DNA of 62,608 bases, the filler included, from Folioceros fuciformis (taxonomy: Eukaryota): NCBI GenBank assembly GCA_049999805.1. It is 11 parts of 11 records of this genome, joined end to end, with 100 filler letters (N's around TTAATTAATTAA, not from the genome) between each part and the next. Parts side by side here need not be neighbours in the genome. Positions count along the whole stretch, not along the records: positions 47,140 to 53,668 come from JBNGIO010001526.1; 10 more parts are not named here. One strand, written 5' to 3'. Below, in pieces: positions 15,299 to 53,768 of this stretch; positions within the stretch are counted from its first letter, which is position 1, and each line of letters begins with the position of its first letter. Both the position numbers and the translations under genes were made by a program. The notes under the pieces are model-generated. The model was not told where the DNA came from. It was given only the letters and a program-made list of their open reading frames with translations, and searched no databases.

Positions 15299-18200
15299 AT
15301 GGCCGAGCGGAGGCGCGAGGATAGCCGGAGCGCAGCAGGAGGAGGGATGGCTCGGAGCGTAGGGAAGGACAAGGACCGGGATAGGGAGAAGGAGCGGGAT
15401 AGACTGAAGGAGCGGGACAGGGATAGGGAGAAGGGTAGGGAGAAGGAGGAAAGGGAGAAAGGGAGGGACAAGGAGGAGGAGAAAGGGAAGGAGCGGGATA
15501 GGGAGAAGGAGGAGAAGGAGAAGGGGAGCAAGGACAAAGAACGGGAGCGGGACAAGGACAAGGAGCACAGGGCGAAGGAGAAGGACAGAGATAGGGCAAA
15601 GGAGAAGGAGAGGGAACTGGAGAAGGAGAGACAGCGAGAGAAGGACAAAGAAAGGCAGCGGGAGAAGGATAGGGAAAGAGAGCTCGAGAGGGATCGGCAG
15701 AAGCAGAAACAGAAGGAACGCGACAGGGACAGGGAACGTGAACGGGAGCGGGAAATCGAGAGGGATAGGGATACGGATCGCGAGAGAGATAGGGACCGGG
15801 ACAGGGATAATGAGAGAGATCGGCCGAAGTCCAAACTGAGGGACAAGGATAGGGAGCAAGACGCAGAGAAGAAAAATGAGAGGGAGAAGCCGAGGGACGA
15901 GCGTGACAAGTGTCACAAAGGGCCGCCGAGTGCGGGTATTGATGGGGAATCGAGAACTATTGTGGAGAAGGAGCGTCAGAAGCCTAAGCAGAAAGAAAGT
16001 GATGCGGAGAAGCGGGAAGAAAGAGAGAGGCATCGTGACGAGCAGGATAGGTCTCACAAGGAGTCTCAGCATGCATCCGCCGAACTGGAAGCACGAGTAT
16101 TAAGGTACATCTTCGACCTTTGAGACTTTGTCCTTTCTGTGACAGTTATTTGCAGTGGGAGGTCCGGTGGAGTCTCCTGTGATAAGCATCACTCTTGCGG
16201 GTAGCTCTCATGGGTTGTCTTGACGAGTGGGATATGTATTGTGTGTAGCTTTGTAGCACTCCATCAAGCATATGTGTTCCTTTTCCTGAATGTTGGGAAG
16301 CAGATGTCTTTGAAGTTCTACCACGTTGTTTTGCGTGTTAGAAATAGGAGAACTCCATGTTTGTGACTTGCCAGAACCTTTTCTTTCAAGATCCACGGGT
16401 GTATGGTTTTGCAGGGTTACCTTGCACCCCAGTGTCCAGTTTATCTGCGCCTGGTCTGAGATGAGCGTACATTGCACTACACTGCAGGATGCGGGAGGAG
16501 AGGTTGAAGTCAAATGCGGATAGAAGATCTGCCAGGAAGACCGAACCTGAAAACCTGGCTGCCGAGGATGATATCTCAGCTTGGGTCAATAAGAGCAGGA
16601 AATTGGAAATGGAAAAGGCTGCTCAAAGGGCCAAGATGTTGTCTGAACAGGTGGGATGCTATCAGAGATTGCACTATTGCCCTCCTGTTTATGTGGCCAC
16701 TTTCTTGTTCACTGAAGAAAATAAGTTGTCTCCTTGCCTCCTCCAGGACGACAATGAAGAGGAGGAGGATTCCATGGATGAAGGCCCAGCTGACAAGATT
16801 GACAGAAGTAATGTCTTTTTGGGTGTGCTTGTCACCATGATTATGCAGGATCTCAGATGTTGTGCATGCATCAACCGATTCTTTGCATTTCTGGATGTTC
16901 TGCAGAGAATCTGGCAGGAGTGAAAGTCCGTCATGGTTTGGATCAGGTGATGGAAGGTGGTTCTGTGGTGCTTACTCTGAAGGACAGTAACATTCTGGCA
17001 GGAGATGATGTGAACGAAGGTAAAGTTTCCCCGTGTATTGAATGCCAGCGACGTTTGGACTTTCCTGGGTTCTGATGGGTGCAATCTTTCTGGAGCATGG
17101 AGGCTGGTCGTTCTCATGAATGTGTGTTTGATGCAGAGGTTGACGAATTGGAGAATATTGAAATCGCCCAGCAGCAACAACGAGAAGAAGCTTATAGGGC
17201 AGCCAAGAAAAAACCGGGAATCTATGAAGACAAGTATGTTGGGATACTGCTCAATATTTTGTCGTCCCTCAGTTTCATTTGTTTTCACTGTCAGAAGGCT
17301 TGTGTTATGCCTTCATGGCCATGTGCTGAAGATGTCGCATTTTGGTTACGTCACACGTCGCATCCTCGTACAGGTTTGATAATGATATTACTGGCCTTGC
17401 TTCGCGGAGTATTTTACCACAGTATGATGATACAGTTAAAGATGAGGTAAAATTTTGGTCACTGTAGTTTTGCACTACCATCTTCGGGAGGTAAACCACT
17501 GTGAAGCTGCCATTGTTGCTGAGGAACTAACTTAGTTTGCAACAATCTCACATCTCCTTTTGTTATCTACAGGCTGTTGTCCTTGACGAGACTGGAGGTA
17601 TTGCAGACGAGAGCAAACAAAGGCTCGAAGAGGTACATTTTTCTGGCAGCTGCTGTATTCAGGGTTAGTGGAGCCCGTAGTTTGCTTACCTCTATAGAGC
17701 AAACGTGTGCCTATTGCATCATGGTTTCAGTGAAGAATAAAGTTATGCCAGTTATATCCATAGCTTCTTATTTAGGATACTGAGCTAATGCGTCTCGTAC
17801 TTCTCAGATTCGACAAAAGCTGCAAAGAATTGGCAGCCGTATGGAACAGTCACTCAATAGTAAGGCTGTTGCTGCAGACTTTTTTACAGAGGAAGAAATG
17901 GTGCAATTCAAGAAACCCAAGAAGCAGAAGAAATTGCGCAAAAAAAACGAGCTTGAGCTGTATGCTCTTGAAGCAGAAGCAGCTCCAGCTGGTCTTGGTT
18001 CTTCTGATCATGGAGCCCGGGGCTCTGGTAGTGTCTCGGCTGCAAAGAAAGCAGAGGAGGAAGGTCTGGCAGATGCACGAAAAAGTGCTTACCAGAGTGC
18101 TCTTCACAAAGCTATGGATGCCTCCAAATCTCTCCAGCAAAAGGGGTTTACTCCGATGGACACGGATGAGGACACTCCAGTGTTTGGAGCAGAGGAAGAT

Positions 18201-19678
18201 CAGGATTTATTCAGGTCACTGGCGAGGGCCCGACAAGCAGCACTTAAGAAGCAAGCTGAAAGCTCAGGAGCTGGCACCAAAAGTCTTGCTGTGCGCTTTG
18301 CTGGAATTCAGACGTCAGAAGAAACTTCTCAGGCAGCAGGGGCAGAGGATAAGAAGGAAGGAGAAGCGAAGGTCGTATTTACTGACACGGGGGAGTTTTG
18401 CCGTAGCCTCCAACTTGATGAAGGTACAAGCTTCGTGAGTGGTGTGGTTATTTGCTCAAAGCTTCCGCATACGGTAAAGTTCTATGCAATTGTCTGTCAT
18501 GCAGCCATAACCCGAAGAGCTGGGCCAAAGGATGCATTTGGAGAAGAGGAAGAAGAACCTCCAGCTGTTCCAATGGAGTTAGAAGTCCCGACTGCTGATG
18601 GAGGGTGGACAGAAGTTAATGAAGCTGCAAATGGGCAGGGTGCTGGAGACGAATCAAGGGACTATAAAGATGAGCCGGAGACTCCTATTAAGGAGGTTGC
18701 AGTCGGGAAAGGTTTGGCTGGTGTCTTAACTCTCCTTAAGGAGAGAGGCACTTTGAAGGAAACTGTGGATTGGGGAGGGAGGAATATGGATAAGAAGAGG
18801 AGCAAGCTTGTTGGGATAGTGGATGATTCAAGTGTGCAATTCAAGAGGGATCACAGAGAGATCATCCTGGATCGGGTTGATGAGTTTGGCCGAACGGTAA
18901 CTATGGACTTCCTAATGTCATTTTGACTCCGCTCAGTCGTTCTGTGGATTCTGTTGAGCAAGTTTGGTCTCTTCCTTGGAGCTAATGTAGTCTGTATTTC
19001 GGGGGCTTTGGTCTTTCTGGTTTCTTGCAGATGACACCGAAGGAAGCTTTTCGGAAGCTGTCACATAAATTTCATGGAAAGGGTCCCGGTAAGATGAAGC
19101 AAGAAAAAAGGATGAAGCAGCATCAGGAGGAGTTGAAGCTGAAGCAAATGAATTCAGGGGATACACCTCTTATGTCTATGGAAAAAATCCGAGAGGCACA
19201 GGCAAATCTCCACTCCCCTTACATCGTTATCAGTGGACACATCAAGCCTGGGTAAGTACTCCCCAGCACCTTAGCCTTCCTGTTCAACTCTATGCCAATC
19301 CATTCTCTTTTTGGAGATCAAAACCTTTAAGTGCAATCCGTTAATGCAGACAAACAAGTGATCCTCGAAGTGGCTTTGCAACCGTGGAAAAGGAGCCCAT
19401 TGGCAGCCTGACCCCCATGTTGGGTGATAAGCACAAGGTCGGGAGTCTGACTCCGATGCTTGGGGACAAGAAGGTACGGTCTTGGTCTAGTCGCTGGGTT
19501 AGTTGCACATTTTATTAAAGCTTCTGTTTCTGCGATTCCCCGGTGCTCGTGTGACCCAGAGTTTTCTTGACAGGTGGAGCATTTTCTTGGAATTAAGCGG
19601 AAGCAGGGCGGAAGCGGAATTAATCACAATGGCAGTATGGGACCACCTCCGCCGAAGAAGCCAAAGGCGGATCATTGA
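15299..19678 (+). CDS. DOT2: SART-1/Snu66 family U4/U6.U5 tri-snRNP protein
   Basis: Long K/E/R/D N-terminus; [112 protein letters not shown]; TGA 19676-19678. Confidence 0.93.
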
Positions 19679-34659: not shown

Positions 34660-36476
34660 ATGGCTTTCCTGCCCCTGCTCCTGCTCCTGCGCCTGCGCCG
34701 CCTGCTCCTGCTCCTGCTCCTAGTCGCTTCAAGCGGGCTGAGGGCCTCGATCGCCGGCCAATGCGGCTACGACGAGGCCAACGTCGAGCGGAGCCAATTC
34801 CACGTGGACGGAATCTGCAGGAAGCTGCGGCACCTGGGGCAGCACGGATCCCGCCCCCACCGCTTCTCCCTGGAGGATTTCGGGGCTGTGGGCGATGGCA
34901 AGACCCTCAACACCCGTGCCTTCCAGAACGCCATCTACCACGTGCAGGACTTCGCTAACAAGGGAGGAGCGCAGCTGTACGTGCCCGCAGGGACCTGGCT
35001 CACCGGCAGCTTCAACCTCACCAGCCATCTCACCTTGTACCTGGACCGTGACGCCGTCATCCTCGGGTCCCAGGTATGGAGCGTGCTGCAGGAATACACG
35101 AATTGAGTCCTGTGCGTGCGTTGCAGTGCAGTGCAGTGCAGGGCTGGGCTGAAGTTGAGTTGCTTCCAGGACTTCGAAGATTATGCCGTAGTGGATCCTC
35201 TGCCGTCCTACGGTCAGGGCAGAGAGCTTCCGGGTGGAAGGCACATCAGTCTCATCCACGGGGAGAATTTGGAGGATGTTGTCATCACAGGTAGAGCTGT
35301 CACCGATTCTGTTGTGGGTGTGTGTCACGGCGAACTGACTATGCCTCCTGCTGCGCTGTTGCCCTGCAGGTGAGAATGGCACAATTGACGGTCAGGGCGC
35401 AGTATGGTGGACGGCTTTCAGGGGCAAGACCCTGGATTTCACCAGACCACATCTCGTGGAGCTCATGTGGTCCACAGACATAATCATATCCAACATCACG
35501 CTTGCCAACTCTCCCTTCTGGACTCTACACCCTGTGTACTGCACGTAGGTGTCACCTCCACCTCCCGCGTTGTTGTCTGACAAGACTGGACCGGTGCACA
35601 GAACATCCGAGCTGATGAGGTTTCGAATCGGTTGTGGTGCAGTGACGTGAAGATTCAGGACGTCACCATCCTCAGCCCGCACAACTCTCCCAACACCGAT
35701 GGCATCGATCCAGGTATGTCTTCCGCACACCAGTGTCACACAAGCAGCGCACAGCATGGGTTCCAGGATGCAACAGCCCTGCTGTAAGTGACTGCCTTGC
35801 TTGCCTCCCCGTTGCAGATTCATCAACTAATGTGTGCATAGAGAACTGTTACATCAGTGTTGGAGATGACGCCATCTCCATCAAGAGCGGCTGGGATGAT
35901 TACGGCATAGCCTACGGCTGCCCCAGTTCAAACATAGTGATACGCGGACTGACCGCAGAGACCCCGACCAGCTCAGGCATAGCCATAGGAAGCGAGATGT
36001 CAGGAGGAGTCGGAAACGTGTTCGCAGAACGAGTGACAATCCAAAACTCGAGAAGGGGGCTCCGCATCAAAACCTCACCAGGTCGGGGGGGCTATGTGGA
36101 GAACGTCACCTTCACCCAAGTCCAAATGACAAACGTGACCACGGCCATCGAAATTACCAGTAACTACGGCGAGCATCCTGGCGACCACTGGAGTGCGGAT
36201 GCTTTGCCTCGGATAGACAGAATTCTGTACTCTTCCATCGTGGGAGAGCAGATCAAGACGGCAGGCAACCTCCAGGGCTTACAGGACGACCCGTTCTGTC
36301 ACATATGCCTCTCTTACGTCTCCCTCCTCGGGACAAGCACCGACTGGAGCTGCTCCAACGTGACAGGATTTTCTTCTGCCGTCCACCCCCAAGCGTGCCC
36401 CGAGCTGTCCCTGAGCGACGAAGCCAGCGTTTGCTCGGCTCTGGAAGGCCGAGCCAACGGTGAGGCACCAGCTTGA
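34660..36476 (+). CDS. Glycoside hydrolase family 28 polygalacturonase-like protein with signal peptide
   Basis: Leu-rich signal peptide; DFGAVGDGKTLNTRAF; WLTGSFNLTSH; NGTIDGQG; SPNTDGIDP; VGDDAISIKSGWD; GIAIGSEMSGG (no GHG histidine); GLRIKT. Confidence 0.93.
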
Positions 36477-46910: not shown

Positions 46911-47650
46911 TTGTAATTAAAGATACACATTATAATGCTAGCTATCCTTGGTTTGAAACAAGCAATCTTCCAAAGGAGCCAGAGGAATCCATGCTGCATT
47001 GACCAAGGATAACTTGTTAAGTTGTAGTTTGCATTTTGGNNNNNNNNNNNNNNNNNNNNNNNNNNNNNNNNNNNNNNNNNNNNTTAATTAATTAANNNNN
47101 NNNNNNNNNNNNNNNNNNNNNNNNNNNNNNNNNNNNNNNATTATGTGTCTAGTTAAATTTCATATCATCAAACATCAATGCTTTTCCTTCTACTTGATCA
47201 ATTTCCCTTATCACTTCAAAACATTGCTTGCTATACTAAATAATATTCTATAATATTACATGTACATTTTTATGATAAGTAGATATTATTTATTTTAAAA
47301 TATTATTATTTAAAGTACTATTGTAGGTAATAAATTAGTTTTATTTTATTTTATAAATAATAAGAGATTAAGAAGGGAAGGAGATTTATCCCATCAAGAT
47401 TTATGCTGACATATTGGAACCACTGAAGTTGAAGTATATATATGTCCATTGATCTACCTTGGCATGATACATTATTTATCCATGTATGACATATGTCACA
47501 TTATGCATAGATAATGTGTCGTGCCTGATGGGCGTTAGGAAGAAGAAAGACTCAATAGAGATCCCTCTAGGGGGTAGCGTTATCGTCATGTTCTGATATG
47601 GCCTGCGAGCAACTCTGAGTGAGCCTTTTCTGATCGTGGCGCGTTTTTTT

Positions 47651-50600
47651 TCACCCGAAATCTTGATGGGATTCAAATTCTCCGTTTTGGACAAGAAATG
47701 CGTCAGACCGGATCTGATTCGACGTTCTTTCATCATCACCGCGATGCTCCTTATCCCCAGCCACGAAACTGTGCAGCAATCCGTCTGTGTCTGTCCACCA
47801 GCTTTGACCTGGCTGCTTCCAAGCTCTAATTCTTTTTCTCCTTGTCTGCGTCTCACGTGCCTGCTCCCACATCCGAGCTCCGGTGTATATGTTCCACATC
47901 AACACATATGCTGCCGCATCTTTCTTGTCGAGTTTCACTGCTTCATTGAAAGCACGGCATCCCACTTGTACGTTGTTCCACTTTCGACAAGCACCCAACA
48001 GAGTGTGCCAAATGTCGGCATTAGGTGGAACATGCATCCTCTCTACCCAAGCTAGTGCCTCATCGAGTTGGCCCGCTCGTCCCAAAAGGTCCACCATACA
48101 TGTGTAGTGCTCCGCCATTGGAGTGATCTCATATTGTCTTGTCATAAGCTCAAAGTAACTCTTCCCTTTGTCCACCACACCTACATGACTGCATGCTTTA
48201 AGTACACTAAGGAATGTGATGCCGTCTGGCTGTATCCCAGCTTCGATCATCCTGTGAAATAAGTCAAAGACCACTTCATCGTCTCCTTGACACGTGTAGC
48301 CTCCAATCAGTGCACTCCACGCGAAAACGCTTCTTTCTGGCAGCGAATCAAAGACCTGCTGCGCATCCGCCATGCTCCCACACTTCCCATACATGTTAAC
48401 CAAACTGCTAGCCACAAACACATCTGCTTGAAGCCCTTGTTCTTCAATCTGTGCATGTAGCTGCCTTCCAATATGCAGAGCTGCCACACTTGCGCATGCC
48501 TGTAGGAGGCACACAAAGGTCACAGCGTCGGGTACAGAAAGCCCATCATCTTGCATAGCACTGTAGAGACGAAGGGCTTCCTGGCCCATGCCCTGCTCCG
48601 AATAACCTTGTATCATGGCAGTCCAAATCACCACATTTTTTTCAAGAAGCATGTCAAAAACTCTTTCAGCGTTATCCAAGCTGCCACACTTTGCGTACAT
48701 GCTTACCAGACTGCTGGCTACAAACGCATCTGCTTCATGTCCTCTTTCCTTAATTTGAGAGTGTAGCTGCTTCCCCTTGTCCAAACCGAGGGTGCCCATA
48801 CTTGCACATGCCTGCAGGAGGCACCCAAATGTTACAGTATCGGCTACAGTCCTGGGACATTCTTGCATAGCACTGTAAAGGCTAAGGGCTTCCTGGCACA
48901 TACCCTGCTGGGAATACCCAGCAATCATGGTATTCCACATCACTAAATCCTTCTTCCCAAGCTCATCAAACACTCCCCTTGCATCCCCTAGGCTACCACA
49001 CTTTGCATACATGTTAATCAAATTGCTCGCAACAAACACATCAGCCTGATGTCCTCCTTCTCTAATTTGCGCATGGAACTGCTTCCCACTCTCCAATGCA
49101 GGGCTGCCCACACTCGCACATGCTTGCAGGAGGCAAGCGAATGTCACAGAGTCTGGTACAGAGATTCCTTCCTCTTGCATAGCACTGTACAGGCAAAGGG
49201 CTTTCAGGCCCATACCCTGTTGGGAATATGCGCCTATCATGGCATTCCACGTTACGACATCTTTCTGACTCAGTTCATCGAACACTGTCTGAGCATCCTC
49301 TAAACCCCCACACTTTGCATACATGTGTATCAAACTGTTGGCTACAAACAAATCTGCTTGATGTCCTTGTTCTTTAATTTGCACATGAAGCTGCCTGCCC
49401 TTTTCCAAAGAGGAGCTTCCCACACTCGCACATGCCTGAAGGAGGCACGAATATGTCACGGAATTTGGTACAGTGTTGGCTTCTCCTTGCATAGCACTGT
49501 AAAGACGAAGGGCTTCCTGGCCCATGCCCTGCTGGGAATAGCCTGCTATCATGGCATTCCACGTCACCACATCTTTCCGGCCAAGGTCGTCAAATACTCT
49601 TTGAGCATCCTCAAGGCTGCCGCACTTTGCATACATGTTTACCAAACTATTGGCGACAAACACGTCTGCTTGAATTCCTTGTTCTTCAATTTGCATACGG
49701 AGCTCCATACCCTTCTCCAAAGCTGAGGTCCCCACAACTGCGCATGCCTGTAGAAGGCATACAAATGTCACTGAATTAGGTTCAGCAATGCCAACCTCTT
49801 GCATGTCACTGTAGACACGAAGCGCTTCTTCTCCCATGCCTTTCTGGGAATATCCTGCAATTAGAGAATTCCATGTAACCACATCCTTCTGGCCAAGTCC
49901 ATCAAACACTCTTTGAGCATCCTCTATGCTGCCACACTTTACATACATGTTTACCAAACTGCTGGCCACAAACCCATCGACTTGATGTGCTTGGTCATTA
50001 AGCTGTCTATGAAGCTGCTTCCCCTTCTCCAATGCCATGGTGCCCACACTTGCGCATGCTTGCAGCAGGCACACAAATGTCACAGCATTGGGTAGAGCTG
50101 TGCCTTCGTCTTGCATTGCATCGTATAGATGAAGGGCATCATGGAACATGCCATGCTGCGAATATCCTCCAATTAGAGCAGTCCAGGTTACAACATCTTT
50201 GTGCTCAAGTCCATCAAACAATCTCTGAGCATCTTCCAAGCTTCCACATTTTGCATACATGTTCACCAAACTGTTGCCTATAAAACCATCAGGTTGGAGC
50301 CCCTGTTCTCTAACTTGCGCATGAAGCTGCTTACCCTTTTCCAACGCTCTGGTGCCCACACTTGCACATGCCTGAAGGAGGTATACAAATGTCACAGAAT
50401 TGGGTACAACGATGCCCTCTTCTTGCATGGCATGATGGAGTTGAAAGGCTTCCTGCCCCATTCCCTGCTGTGTATAAGCTGCAATCATGGCATTCCAGGT
50501 CACCACATCCTTTTCACGCAACTGCGTGAACACAATCTGAGCGTCTTCCAAGCTGCCACATTTTGCATACATATTGACCAAACTAGTAGCTACGAAACTA

Positions 50601-52447
50601 CCAGCCTGATCTGCTCGTTCTCTAATTTGTTCATGAAGCTGAATGCCCATCGCCAGCGCTGGTGAGCCTACACTTGCACATGCCTGAAGAAGGCACCCAA
50701 ACGTCACGAAATTGGGTACAGCAATGCCTTCTTCTAGCATAGCACTGTAGACACGAAGGGCTTCCTGGCCTCTGCCCCGCTGGGAATACCCAGCTATGAG
50801 CACCGTCCATGTCACTACATCTTTTTGATGAAGTCCATCAAACACACTGTGAGCATCTTCCAAGCTGCCACACTTCGCATACATGTTTACCAAACTGTTG
50901 GCTACTTGCACGTGAGCTTGATGTCCTCGTTCTTTGATTTGTACATGAAGCTGCTTTCCCTCCTCCAACGCTGGGGTCCCCACACTTGCACATGCCTGCA
51001 AGAGGCACACAAATGTCACGGGATCAGGTACAGTCATGCCTTCTACTTGCATAACACTGTACAGACGAAGGGCTTCCTGGGGCATGCCCTGCTGGGAATA
51101 CCCTGCAATTAGAGCTGTCCACGCCACCACATCTTTTTGGCTAAGTCCCTCGAACACTCTCTGGGCATCCTCCAGGCTGCCACATTTTGCATACATGTTT
51201 ACCAAACTGTTAGCCACATACACATCAACTTGGTGTCCTTGCTCTCCAATCTCCACATGCAGTTGTTTCCCCTTGTCCAGAGCTAGGGTGCCCACACTTG
51301 CACATGCCTGCAGGAGGCACACGAATGTCACAGAATTGGGGGAGATGACGCCATCGTCTTGCATATCACTGTACAGACGAAGTGCCTCCTGTCCCATCCC
51401 CTGCTGGGCATACCCTGCTATCATGGTATTCCACGTCACCACATCTTTTTGACGAAGTCCATCAAACACACGCTTTCCATCCTCCAATCTCCCACACTTT
51501 GCATACATGTCCACCAGACCATTACAGACAATCAGATGAGGCTCATCCCCACTGGCCAACACATCTGCATGCACCTGCTGACCAGTTTTCAGATCTGATC
51601 CCCTTGCGCAAGCCTGCAGGGCTGCCACAAATACGTGGCCATCGGGCTTCGCACTGGACCTTTGCATCCGATTATACAATTTTATGGCTTCCTTGTCCTT
51701 CCCCAGTTTAACATGCGCAGAAATTATAGAAGACCACATAAAGGCATCTGGTTCAGCAATCAAGCTGAAAACATCCATTGCGTCGTGCAACCTCCCACGA
51801 GAGGCATACATCCGCAGAATGTGATTGCACAGAAACGTGTCCGACTCGTACCCTTGTTTCACCGTGAAAGCATGCACACGGCGACCAAGTGCGAGATCCT
51901 TCTTCACATCACACAACTTCAACACATAATAAAAGAGAGACTTCGAGACACAAACCTCTCTCCGCACCAGAACTCCCAGAGCATCAACAGCTTCATTGAC
52001 ACGGCCCTCGTCACATAGCCGGCTTACGATTTCACCAGTGACACCACTTTCATACCCTGCAGGCCGAGCATAGTCCGACTCATCCGACAAGCTCAAATCG
52101 GAATCGGCAGCACGACGCTCCATAGCCGCCAGCTGCGCATCCACCCACGGCGGCTTATGCACGCTGTTCAGCCAGAGCACCTCGTGCGACTCCCGATGCC
52201 GGAAATCAGGCGACCGGTCGCTCTTCTTGTCTTGCCTGTTATCCCACCAAAGCAAAGGATCCCGGAAAAACAGTCGCCACAAGAGCTCTTGTCGCTGTAA
52301 GATCCCCTGGCCGCGAGATCCATCTCCAGGCAGAGCTCTTGGACGAGCTGGCTTTCTCGCATAGCTGCGGCTCATCGCAGCTTGCTTCATTGAAGTTAGG
52401 TGAGCAGGGGCTCTTCCACCACCTGATAGCCGGCTCCGCACAGCCAT
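47651..52447 (-). CDS. PLS-class PPR protein (about 38 PPRs, E1/E2, WW-type PG box, no DYW catalytic core) with N-terminal OSB-type PDF motif
   Basis: Single 1598-aa ORF; R/S/A-rich N-terminus without acidic residues for 41 aa; LWRLFFRDPLLWWDNR..SPDFRHR..LWL..PPWV; 12 S-P-L triplets ending P2-L2-S2 (GITFLSVLKACSHVG, AEHYTCMVDLLGRAG); E1 IWHTLLGACR; E2 AAYVLMWNIY; KQPGQSWWTD..HSFVAGD. Confidence 0.95.
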   Translation of the reverse strand: MAVRSRLSGGGRAPAHLTSMKQAAMSRSYARKPARPRALPGDGSRGQGILQRQELLWRLFFRDPLLWWDNRQDKKSDRSPDFRHRESHEVLWLNSVHKPPWVDAQLAAMERRAADSDLSLSDESDYARPAGYESGVTGEIVSRLCDEGRVNEAVDALGVLVRREVCVSKSLFYYVLKLCDVKKDLALGRRVHAFTVKQGYESDTFLCNHILRMYASRGRLHDAMDVFSLIAEPDAFMWSSIISAHVKLGKDKEAIKLYNRMQRSSAKPDGHVFVAALQACARGSDLKTGQQVHADVLASGDEPHLIVCNGLVDMYAKCGRLEDGKRVFDGLRQKDVVTWNTMIAGYAQQGMGQEALRLYSDMQDDGVISPNSVTFVCLLQACASVGTLALDKGKQLHVEIGEQGHQVDVYVANSLVNMYAKCGSLEDAQRVFEGLSQKDVVAWTALIAGYSQQGMPQEALRLYSVMQVEGMTVPDPVTFVCLLQACASVGTPALEEGKQLHVQIKERGHQAHVQVANSLVNMYAKCGSLEDAHSVFDGLHQKDVVTWTVLIAGYSQRGRGQEALRVYSAMLEEGIAVPNFVTFGCLLQACASVGSPALAMGIQLHEQIRERADQAGSFVATSLVNMYAKCGSLEDAQIVFTQLREKDVVTWNAMIAAYTQQGMGQEAFQLHHAMQEEGIVVPNSVTFVYLLQACASVGTRALEKGKQLHAQVREQGLQPDGFIGNSLVNMYAKCGSLEDAQRLFDGLEHKDVVTWTALIGGYSQHGMFHDALHLYDAMQDEGTALPNAVTFVCLLQACASVGTMALEKGKQLHRQLNDQAHQVDGFVASSLVNMYVKCGSIEDAQRVFDGLGQKDVVTWNSLIAGYSQKGMGEEALRVYSDMQEVGIAEPNSVTFVCLLQACAVVGTSALEKGMELRMQIEEQGIQADVFVANSLVNMYAKCGSLEDAQRVFDDLGRKDVVTWNAMIAGYSQQGMGQEALRLYSAMQGEANTVPNSVTYSCLLQACASVGSSSLEKGRQLHVQIKEQGHQADLFVANSLIHMYAKCGGLEDAQTVFDELSQKDVVTWNAMIGAYSQQGMGLKALCLYSAMQEEGISVPDSVTFACLLQACASVGSPALESGKQFHAQIREGGHQADVFVASNLINMYAKCGSLGDARGVFDELGKKDLVMWNTMIAGYSQQGMCQEALSLYSAMQECPRTVADTVTFGCLLQACASMGTLGLDKGKQLHSQIKERGHEADAFVASSLVSMYAKCGSLDNAERVFDMLLEKNVVIWTAMIQGYSEQGMGQEALRLYSAMQDDGLSVPDAVTFVCLLQACASVAALHIGRQLHAQIEEQGLQADVFVASSLVNMYGKCGSMADAQQVFDSLPERSVFAWSALIGGYTCQGDDEVVFDLFHRMIEAGIQPDGITFLSVLKACSHVGVVDKGKSYFELMTRQYEITPMAEHYTCMVDLLGRAGQLDEALAWVERMHVPPNADIWHTLLGACRKWNNVQVGCRAFNEAVKLDKKDAAAYVLMWNIYTGARMWEQARETQTRRKRIRAWKQPGQSWWTDTDGLLHSFVAGDKEHRGDDERTSNQIRSDAFLVQNGEFESHQDFG

Positions 52448-53185
52448 GAGCTCGCAGGAGCAAGAGCAACCGCCCGGACCTCCTCATATCCAGATCTGGT
52501 GCTTGCCTCAGCTTGCTTCCCTGACTGATCCACAAGCACATACTCCTTCAAACCTCCACTTCTTTCTCGTCTGGAGGCATGGCTGGCATCATAGGAGCTT
52601 CCAGAACCAGCTCCCTTTACACGTCCAGTAGAACGCAACATTTCGAGTGTCTCCTCAAGCGGCCTTCCTCATCAGTGTCATAAAAACGCCGGGTGAACAA
52701 ACATCCGCAGAGAAGCAACTCCAGTAAGCATTTGGATACATTACATCCACCTCCCTCGGACGGAAATCGGAAATACAGCATGCAAGGAGACGGAAAAACA
52801 GCATGACGAAGGTGCCACTGAAGGAGGATCGGACACAGTGAAGCATCCAAAATGCAAACAGTCCATTTTCCTCATCCTTCATGTCCTTCATTCTTCCTTT
52901 CCTTCCTTCTTCTCGGTTATGCAGAATTCTGCTGTTCAGCACACCAAAATGTTCCGAGGCAACATTCCTTACAATCCTACAACATCTCTCTGAACATAGT
53001 TCTATGTATTTATTGATATTTTATTCCACACTACAAAACTGGAGCCAGATCAAACCTGCAGTCCCGAACTCCCTGTCACCAACACTCCACGAAATCCTCT
53101 CCTCCCTTCCTCTTCCACCACAAACACTCGTAACAAAATCCCTTACTTTACTTCAACATCATGAACATCACATACAATTTCTAAT

Positions 53186-53668
53186 TCAAACTCTTACAGA
53201 AAAAACATATCCAATATGACAATCTGCAACTCGGTAATCAGCTGCAGCGGATGGGACACAAACATTTAGAAGTCTTTCACTCGCAAAATTGAGGCAAGAA
53301 CGGCATTGATGGCTTTCAGTCATCGTGGGTGATTTTCCAGCCACACAACTAGCAGTGACTTTCAAGTGATTAGGACCGTTATAAATGGGAAGATCATAGA
53401 CAAGAACATAGGGATGATTGCTTGCAAATCGTTTGCTAACTTCTACCATTGTTTCTTGTATCTTAAGATTTAATGTCTCTAAGATGGAATTAGGAAAGAC
53501 ATCTCCACTACAATCACAGGAAACAAAAGTGATATCTGGAGAAACTTCAGACTTTCCTTGTCCTGGCAGTCCTGTCCATGGAAAGGTACTTTCATCTCCA
53601 CCACTCAAAACAACTTGAACTCCCACAATTAGGTATAATGCAGCACAAAGACTGAGGACATGGAAAGT
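53186..53668 (-). CDS. Secreted cysteine-rich single DUF26/Gnk2-like protein, start lost in the spacer
   Basis: In-frame hydrophobic FHVLSLCAALYLIVGVQVVLS, then TFVSCDCS and SC-x13-CRSCLNFASERLLNVC..DCHIGY, resembling the Gnk2 C-terminal half. Confidence 0.55.
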   Translation of the reverse strand, partial: TFHVLSLCAALYLIVGVQVVLSGGDESTFPWTGLPGQGKSEVSPDITFVSCDCSGDVFPNSILETLNLKIQETMVEVSKRFASNHPYVLVYDLPIYNGPNHLKVTASCVAGKSPTMTESHQCRSCLNFASERLLNVCVPSAAADYRVADCHIGYVFSVRV

Positions 53669-53768
53669 NNNNNNNNNNNNNNNNNNNNNNNNNNNNNNNN
53701 NNNNNNNNNNNNTTAATTAATTAANNNNNNNNNNNNNNNNNNNNNNNNNNNNNNNNNNNNNNNNNNNN

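Follow-up and report, generated by a model that had tools for sequence, protein, structure and literature searches.

The window analysed here is a stretch of 62,608 nucleotides of DNA from Folioceros fuciformis (Eukaryota; GenBank assembly GCA_049999805.1), made of 11 parts joined with N filler. Its sole pentatricopeptide repeat (PPR) gene lies within the part at positions 47140-53668 (JBNGIO010001526.1) and consists of a single open reading frame (ORF) of 1598 amino acids (aa), which runs without interruption from ATG to stop at 47651..52447 on the minus strand. An earlier note on this DNA had described, at residues 54-106 of this frame, the PDF motif of plant organellar single-stranded DNA (ssDNA)-binding proteins (OSB), placed between a transit-peptide-like N-terminus and the first PPR of a PLS-class, editing-type factor. 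We found the exact string (ELLWRLFFRDPLLWWDNRQDKKSDRSPDFRHRESHEVLWLNSVHKPPWVDAQL) at 52130-52288 on the minus strand, the one occurrence of the motif in the window; translated on the plus strand, these positions give no meaningful sequence. Its surroundings also agree with that description, with residues 1-52 being basic (11 basic residues and 1 acidic) and predicted to be disordered, and the first PPR helices starting from residue ~138. By its composition, the basic N-terminus looks like an organelle-targeting presequence. The gene is laid out as follows.

47651..52447, minus strand: whole ORF, 1598 aa plus stop, with presequence, PDF domain, linker, PLS PPR array, E motif and short tail
52316..52447, minus strand: residues 1-44, basic, presequence-like, predicted to be disordered (composition; predicted local distance difference test score, pLDDT, ~45)
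52097..52315, minus strand: residues 45-117, PDF domain, predicted as helix, three short strands and helix (phmmer; hidden Markov model, HMM, 70-78 bits; pLDDT 92-96)
52112-52294, minus strand: residues 52-112, the HMM match inside the PDF domain
52037..52096, minus strand: residues 118-137, acidic Ser/Asp-rich linker, predicted to be disordered (pLDDT <50 for residues 119-129)
47981..52036, minus strand: residues 138-1489, PLS-class PPR array of 12 P-L-S triplets of ~104 aa (Pfam; match to PDB 5iww)
48347..51510, minus strand: tandem repeat with a period of 312 bp, 10.2 copies and 74% matches, the DNA trace of the PLS triplets
47798..47980, minus strand: residues 1490-1550, E motif (E1/E2 region; PF20431, E 1.4e-9)
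47651..47797, minus strand: residues 1551-1598 plus stop, tail aligning with the start of the DYW region of relatives and ending before the catalytic part (blastp to relative P0235)

Behind the acidic linker (AADSDLSLSDESDYARPAGYESGVT), Pfam recognised dozens of PPR repeats in the ORF (PPR_2, E 8e-198; PPR, E 2e-165), and a sequence search of the PDB gave matches from residue 139 on only, to designed PLS-type PPR proteins (PLS9-PPR, 5iww). The fifth and last residues of a PPR motif are the base-specifying positions. Across the 12 triplets of the array the scaffold is nearly identical and it is these fifth and last residues that differ, which argues for a working RNA-reading tract and not for junk. 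At the other end, the ORF stops ~48 residues past the E motif, before the DYW catalytic part: when aligned with DYW-bearing relatives it can be followed through E1/E2 and a further ~35 residues, and the alignment ends before the last residues of the relatives (at least 86 of them). The DYW deaminase family PF14432 was not among the 25 Pfam families listed for the ORF, and tblastn downstream of the ORF, as far as ~46400, found no DYW remnant, the stretch 47040-47139 being unreadable N. The predicted product is a PLS-class, E-type PPR protein without a DYW deaminase, which qualifies the earlier description as an editing-type factor. By itself such a protein could contribute no more than target recognition to editing, and any part it has in that process would require a deaminase supplied in trans.

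The layout also bears on whether the PDF domain belongs to the working protein. The in-frame ATGs at residues 1, 20 and 25 all lie N-terminal of the motif, with merely 12 codons between the upstream in-frame stop and the first of them (stop-to-stop frame 47651..52483), and the next in-frame ATG past the motif is residue 108. Were transcription or translation to start downstream of the motif, or were the gene a young or decaying copy with its frame still open, the PDF domain would stand outside the working protein. The 312-bp tandem repeat, a sign of recent internal expansion at 74% matches, fits such a reading, as does the end of the ORF before the DYW catalytic part. However, a stop-free frame of 4.8 kb is unlikely in decaying DNA, the invariant PDF residues are all intact, and the base-specifying positions differ between triplets whose scaffold is kept. 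A start at residue 108 would moreover lose the presequence, and in relatives PDF and PPR stand in one ORF, both on short contigs and on one Pteridium transcript. We regard this explanation as the least likely of those weighed here.

Identity and predicted fold of the PDF domain

Pfam has no model for the PDF motif and left residues 1-137 unmatched (a weak PPR_1 match lies at 140-155). A phmmer search with residues 45-115 against a database of 1.84 billion representative proteins returned 586 matches at E<=1e-3, including 165 at <=1e-10 and 14 at <=1e-30, and many of the matched proteins contained 2-13 matched stretches each. The best 150 of the 586 were inspected. From these, we aligned 94 proteins that had no PPR match, were 200-520 aa long and started with M. 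Their consensus opens with an N-terminal block, after which LWxxLFxNPxxWWDNRxxKxNPxxPDFKHKxTGxALWLxxxxPxWV appears once or twice, and in 51 of the 94 Pfam matched SSB (best E 8.5e-20) ahead of the PDF copies. This is the same architecture as reviews give for OSB proteins, which, in the passages at hand, have an SSB-like OB fold and then one to several 50-residue PDF motifs with a Pro-Asp-Phe signature (PMC6963530, PMC4166229, PMC13393729).

Profile searches gave the same picture. A strict OSB-type HMM, built from 166 PDF domains of 78 proteins that are without PPR and have their first PDF >150 aa from the N-terminus, matched the ORF at residues 52-112 with 70.4 bits (E 4e-24). When residues 41-125 were shuffled 1000 times, no shuffle scored above 10.8 bits. 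Chance similarity between W-rich sequences is ruled out by this control. With a broader HMM of non-PPR PDFs the ORF scored 78.2 bits. In a second alignment, of 34 short PDF-bearing proteins taken whole and not as cut-out domains, all ten invariant and all seven nearly invariant columns were present in the PDF of the window. The eponymous residues are P80-D81-F82 in the ORF, and P-D-F is nearly invariant in both the 94-protein and the 34-protein alignment. Taken together, the homology evidence identifies the stretch as a genuine PDF-type domain, a module of roughly 60 residues that shares its ancestry with the repeats found, in one to many copies, behind the SSB-like fold of OSB-type proteins. 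The structural part of the earlier note's reading is thereby supported.

Other searches were less informative. The ESM Atlas gave no usable match, and word-indexed protein searches with the motif region (lengths 878-2797; shorter proteins) gave none, which is a limit of the index since HMMER gave 586. Ten matches were looked up by name; eight were named, in every case 'hypothetical', 'unnamed' or, for Coptis, kinesin only, and these eight came from Sinapis, Linum, Riccia, Kingdonia and Coptis. In the Coptis chinensis protein (P0048, 1526 aa) a kinesin motor domain lies downstream of the PDF matches (best stretch 338-391), and a Kingdonia uniflora protein (P0003, 1160 aa) has 13 PDF stretches; both could be gene-model artefacts. 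PF26713 appears in the precomputed lists for 47 of 120 PLS relatives and was considered as a possible model of the PDF, but it does not track the PDF (both in 18 proteins, PF26713 alone in 29) and was rejected.

AlphaFold2, run on residues 45-115 alone with the 34-protein alignment, predicted a long helix, three short strands and a C-terminal helix (mean pLDDT 93.2, predicted template modelling score (pTM) 0.78). When residues 1-300 were modelled, pLDDT was ~45 for residues 1-44, 92-96 for residues 45-117, <50 for residues 119-129 and ~97 for the PPR helices from 138 on, with an overall pTM of 0.58. The PDF is thus predicted to be an independently folding domain, and in the protein of the window it is modelled as a separate bead on the acidic linker. 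Foldseek found no match of the PDF model in the PDB at E<=1e-3, and the best Z in a VIA-align structural search of 48,161 chains was 4.4. This absence of a fold analogue is no evidence of a new fold.

Recurrence of the PDF-PPR fusion in other plants

The PPR region of the window's protein was also matched in 12 (E<=1e-5) or 13 (E<=1e-3) of the best 150 PDF matches. When nine long PDF matches were run against Pfam, PPR was found in seven, the other two being the kinesin and an SSB protein, and one of the seven, P0093, carries E and DYW as well. Sources named for the fusions are the lycophyte Diphasiastrum complanatum (three clusters, many isoforms), Adiantum capillus-veneris (two proteins), Ceratopteris richardii, Sphagnum compactum and a transcriptome contig of Pteridium aquilinum. 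A separate search for PLS relatives used residues 1-420 as the query, and among the best 120 of its 576 relatives 31 were positive for PDF by the non-PPR profile (27 at >=60 bits, 4 partial or weak), a share that is inflated because the query included the PDF. These include further Diphasiastrum loci, four proteins of Calypogeia fissa and others from Sphagnum fallax, S. jensenii and Adiantum; metagenome clusters with Sphagnum magellanicum proteins are also positive, and four Sphagnum species are named in all. Across both searches the fusion was found at 18 named Diphasiastrum loci.

The PDF stands N-terminal to the array in all 55 PDF+PPR proteins compared (isoforms included), with one copy in 34 proteins, two in 19, three in one and none at >=25 bits in one. 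No PDF was detected in the 12 Cryptomeria, 14 Ginkgo and 3 Selaginella PLS relatives among the best 120, a small and biased sample. The contrast with the many carriers in Diphasiastrum, Sphagnum, Calypogeia and Adiantum may follow lineage; absence from seed plants in general is beyond this sample. By their sequences, the proteins form a recurrent PDF-PLS-PPR subfamily, with members among peat mosses and ferns as well as in one leafy liverwort and one lycophyte. The chimera reported in the earlier note is real in sequence, and it is not unique to this genome. We consider it nearly certain that the domain is a PDF and that the window's protein belongs to this family.

The conserved columns are identical in PPR-borne (61 domains) and OSB-borne (315 domains) PDFs. 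In a FastTree phylogeny of 350 distinct domains, the PPR label changed 12 times, against a mean of 45.7 for shuffled labels, with some of the 'non-PPR' rows being N-terminal fragments of PPR proteins. A second tree was made from 48 PPR-borne domains and 70 domains sampled from 156 strict OSB-type ones; the other 86 OSB rows and a further 146 rows of ambiguous type were excluded. It required 5 label changes (shuffled mean 37.5), and its well-supported branches force just one. An approximately unbiased (AU) test did not reject the PPR-borne PDFs as one clade (p 0.714; constrained tree 18.6 log-likelihood units higher). With 61 columns these trees have low resolution, and the sequences are compatible with a single old fusion. 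The PDF of the window is nearest to that of P0093 (61-62% identity), and the group in which it falls also contains P0007, P0235 and the Pteridium transcript P0108.

Elsewhere in the window, one ORF matched the SART-1 family (17784-18926, plus strand; E 4.5e-25) and another glycosyl hydrolase family 28 (35646-36476, plus strand; E 2e-22), which fits plant nuclear DNA. Six further long ORFs of the window had no Pfam match. Runs of 44 N occur in pairs 12 bases apart at ten sites (e.g. 47040-47139 and 53669-53768; 880 N in total), and two of these paired runs flank the PPR gene.

Possible roles of the PDF domain

According to passages on OSB proteins in two reviews, AtOSB1 needs no more than its PDF motif to bind ssDNA and AtOSB2 forms a tetramer (PMC6963530), and OSB1 and OSB2 prefer ssDNA over double-stranded DNA or RNA (PMC4166229). 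From homology to such proteins, we infer the following role for the PDF in the fusion. The basic N-terminus would send the protein into the organelle, where the PDF would act as an anchor, holding single-stranded nucleic acid irrespective of its sequence. The likeliest ligand of the PDF would be ssDNA exposed in the active nucleoid (a displaced strand, R-loops, or replication or recombination intermediates), which is favoured because ssDNA binding is the only activity documented for the PDF. Anchored in this way, the sequence-specific PPR tract would be kept beside nascent transcripts. A protein of the PDF-PLS-PPR subfamily whose PDF acts as a single-strand nucleic-acid anchor in the organelle is the best overall explanation, and we give it a probability of roughly 0.55. 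Taken separately, it is quite probable that the PDF has some role in binding single-stranded nucleic acid; that ssDNA rather than RNA is the relevant ligand, with the PDF as a tether to ssDNA in the active nucleoid, is put forward tentatively, at somewhat less than even odds.

The spacing of the two domains bears directly on the choice of ligand. Counted from the last PDF to the first PPR detected, the median distance is 20 residues (range -1 to 75, n=53), and distances of 2-10 aa are frequent. The PDF always sits just upstream of the array, a spacing that matters for an RNA co-ligand and would be irrelevant for a tether. The MORF/RIP helpers of seed-plant editosomes, which are unrelated to the PDF in sequence, act in trans and raise the RNA affinity of PLS arrays. 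In a similar manner, the PDF might contact the transcript 5' of the PPR footprint and add unspecific affinity, as an RNA clamp. Such a role would also suit the retention of the fusion in many paralogues with presumably different targets (the 18 Diphasiastrum loci), and the presence of complete PLS-E-DYW proteins among the PDF-bearing relatives (P0093; precomputed PF14432 in others). Against it stand the preference of OSB1 and OSB2 for ssDNA over RNA in the passage cited (PMC4166229), conserved columns that are as in OSB PDFs and give no sign of re-tuning, and the disordered linker of ~20 aa in the window's protein. This RNA clamp is the main rival to the ssDNA anchor, and we rate it as possible though doubtful.

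A further alternative is that the PDF makes protein contacts, for example in oligomerisation or in recruiting a partner such as an OSB protein, a nucleoid protein or a deaminase that acts in trans. AtOSB2 is a tetramer (PMC6963530, in the part cited above), and the window's protein, being without DYW, would need a partner. Nevertheless, nothing in the analysis points to one, ssDNA binding is the only activity described for the isolated motif, and the presence of the PDF in DYW-bearing relatives too shows that it does not stand in for the deaminase. A role in protein contact is therefore very unlikely in our estimate, though marginally less so than a PDF left outside the working protein.

Several observations weigh against the single-strand anchor as the preferred explanation, or against the steps that lead to it. 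The gene is known here from its sequence, and a transcript start downstream of the motif is possible; one sequencing run of guessed type contained 0.44 of the window's sampled words, which has no bearing on expression either way. Near-identity among the PLS triplets could be the mark of a young gene that has yet to become functional or has already ceased to be so. None of the ten matches looked up bears the name 'OSB', and the domain is equated with the published PDF motif through its architecture, P-D-F signature, length and plant-only named matches, and not through the OSB sequences of Arabidopsis. The frequency of the fusion among PLS relatives is, as stated, an inflated figure. With no clear solved fold analogue, the structure gives no hint of a ligand. 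Finally, the short spacing between PDF and PPR in most relatives fits RNA contact at least as well as a DNA tether, and the long disordered linker of the window's protein favours neither.

A broader scenario can be drawn, which we offer as speculation and think rather unlikely as a whole. PDF-PLS proteins would be an old land-plant device, going back to a possibly single fusion before the split of bryophytes and vascular plants. The PDF would act as a single-strand clamp in cis on editing factors, either coupling editing to transcription in the nucleoid or boosting the RNA affinity of PLS arrays, and seed plants would have lost it and use MORF/RIP. In a bolder variant, members without DYW would work in genome maintenance, with the PPR code and the PDF jointly reading specific single-stranded organellar DNA.

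In plant organelles, the specificity of RNA editing comes from PLS-class PPR proteins, on which designer tools for RNA binding and RNA editing are also modelled. If many of their paralogues in non-seed land plants carry a conserved N-terminal domain for which no activity other than ssDNA binding has been described, this domain would be an unrecognised part of the editing machinery. MORF helpers are not known from the non-seed lineages concerned. The PDF-PLS fusion could offer a handle on how PLS arrays gain affinity in these lineages, and likewise on the co-transcriptional recruitment of editing factors at the nucleoid. The use of the PDF domain also extends beyond OSB proteins. The architecture, with its putative function, should be of interest to the organelle RNA-editing field.

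Comparison with known systems

The earlier note knew of no functional description of this architecture, and full-text searches of the openly accessible literature likewise found no paper in which PPR proteins are connected to OSB proteins or to the PDF motif. 'PDF motif' and 'pentatricopeptide' occur together in one paper, a review of DNA replication proteins. A 2026 survey of the OSB family, in the excerpt at hand, kept only proteins with both PDF and OB-fold (PMC13393729), so it would have missed PDF-PPR fusions by design. Apparently, these are known domains in a recurrent architecture that is undescribed in print.

The legend of a review figure marks the N-terminal box of PPR proteins as a transit peptide only (PMC9459714), in line with the remark in the earlier note that typical factors have just a targeting peptide there. 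In the same review, as far as its excerpted text goes, extra domains are named for the P subfamily only and there is nothing on an N-terminal accessory domain in PLS proteins (PMC9459714). Maize PPR4 with its N-terminal RRM, PPR-SMR proteins, PRORP with NYN and OTP51 with LAGLIDADG, as given in that text, resemble the window's protein in joining a PPR tract to a second nucleic-acid-binding or catalytic domain, and in PPR4 the extra domain is also N-terminal; unlike it, they are P-class proteins with other domains, none of them a PDF (PMC9459714).

With OSB proteins, the window's protein shares a PDF of the same length and with the same W/P/WWD.R/K/PDF.H/LW/P.W columns, as well as a basic N-terminal presequence, and tandem duplication of the PDF is common to OSB proteins and the fusions (two copies in 19 of 55). 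It differs in having no SSB-like OB fold: Pfam finds no SSB match at E<=10 in residues 1-205, and in the model of residues 1-300 the PDF and the PPR helices are the only folded parts, with no domain rich in strands. Its PDF is also N-terminal (residues 45-117 of 1598) and not C-terminal, and is followed by a PPR array of ~1350 residues and an E motif. Membership of the OSB family is rejected, as the OB fold is absent and the PDF stands at the wrong end.

Closer in overall build are the PLS-class E/DYW PPR proteins, with which it has in common the P-L-S triplets, the E motif and a single-exon ORF; its nearest relatives are annotated PPR proteins, many of them with DYW. It departs from them in the folded domain between presequence and first PPR, in lacking the DYW catalytic part, and in an array that is unusually long and internally repetitive. 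As for the MORF/RIP helpers, the likeness would be one of function, in that the PDF may likewise assist a PLS array by increasing its affinity for RNA.

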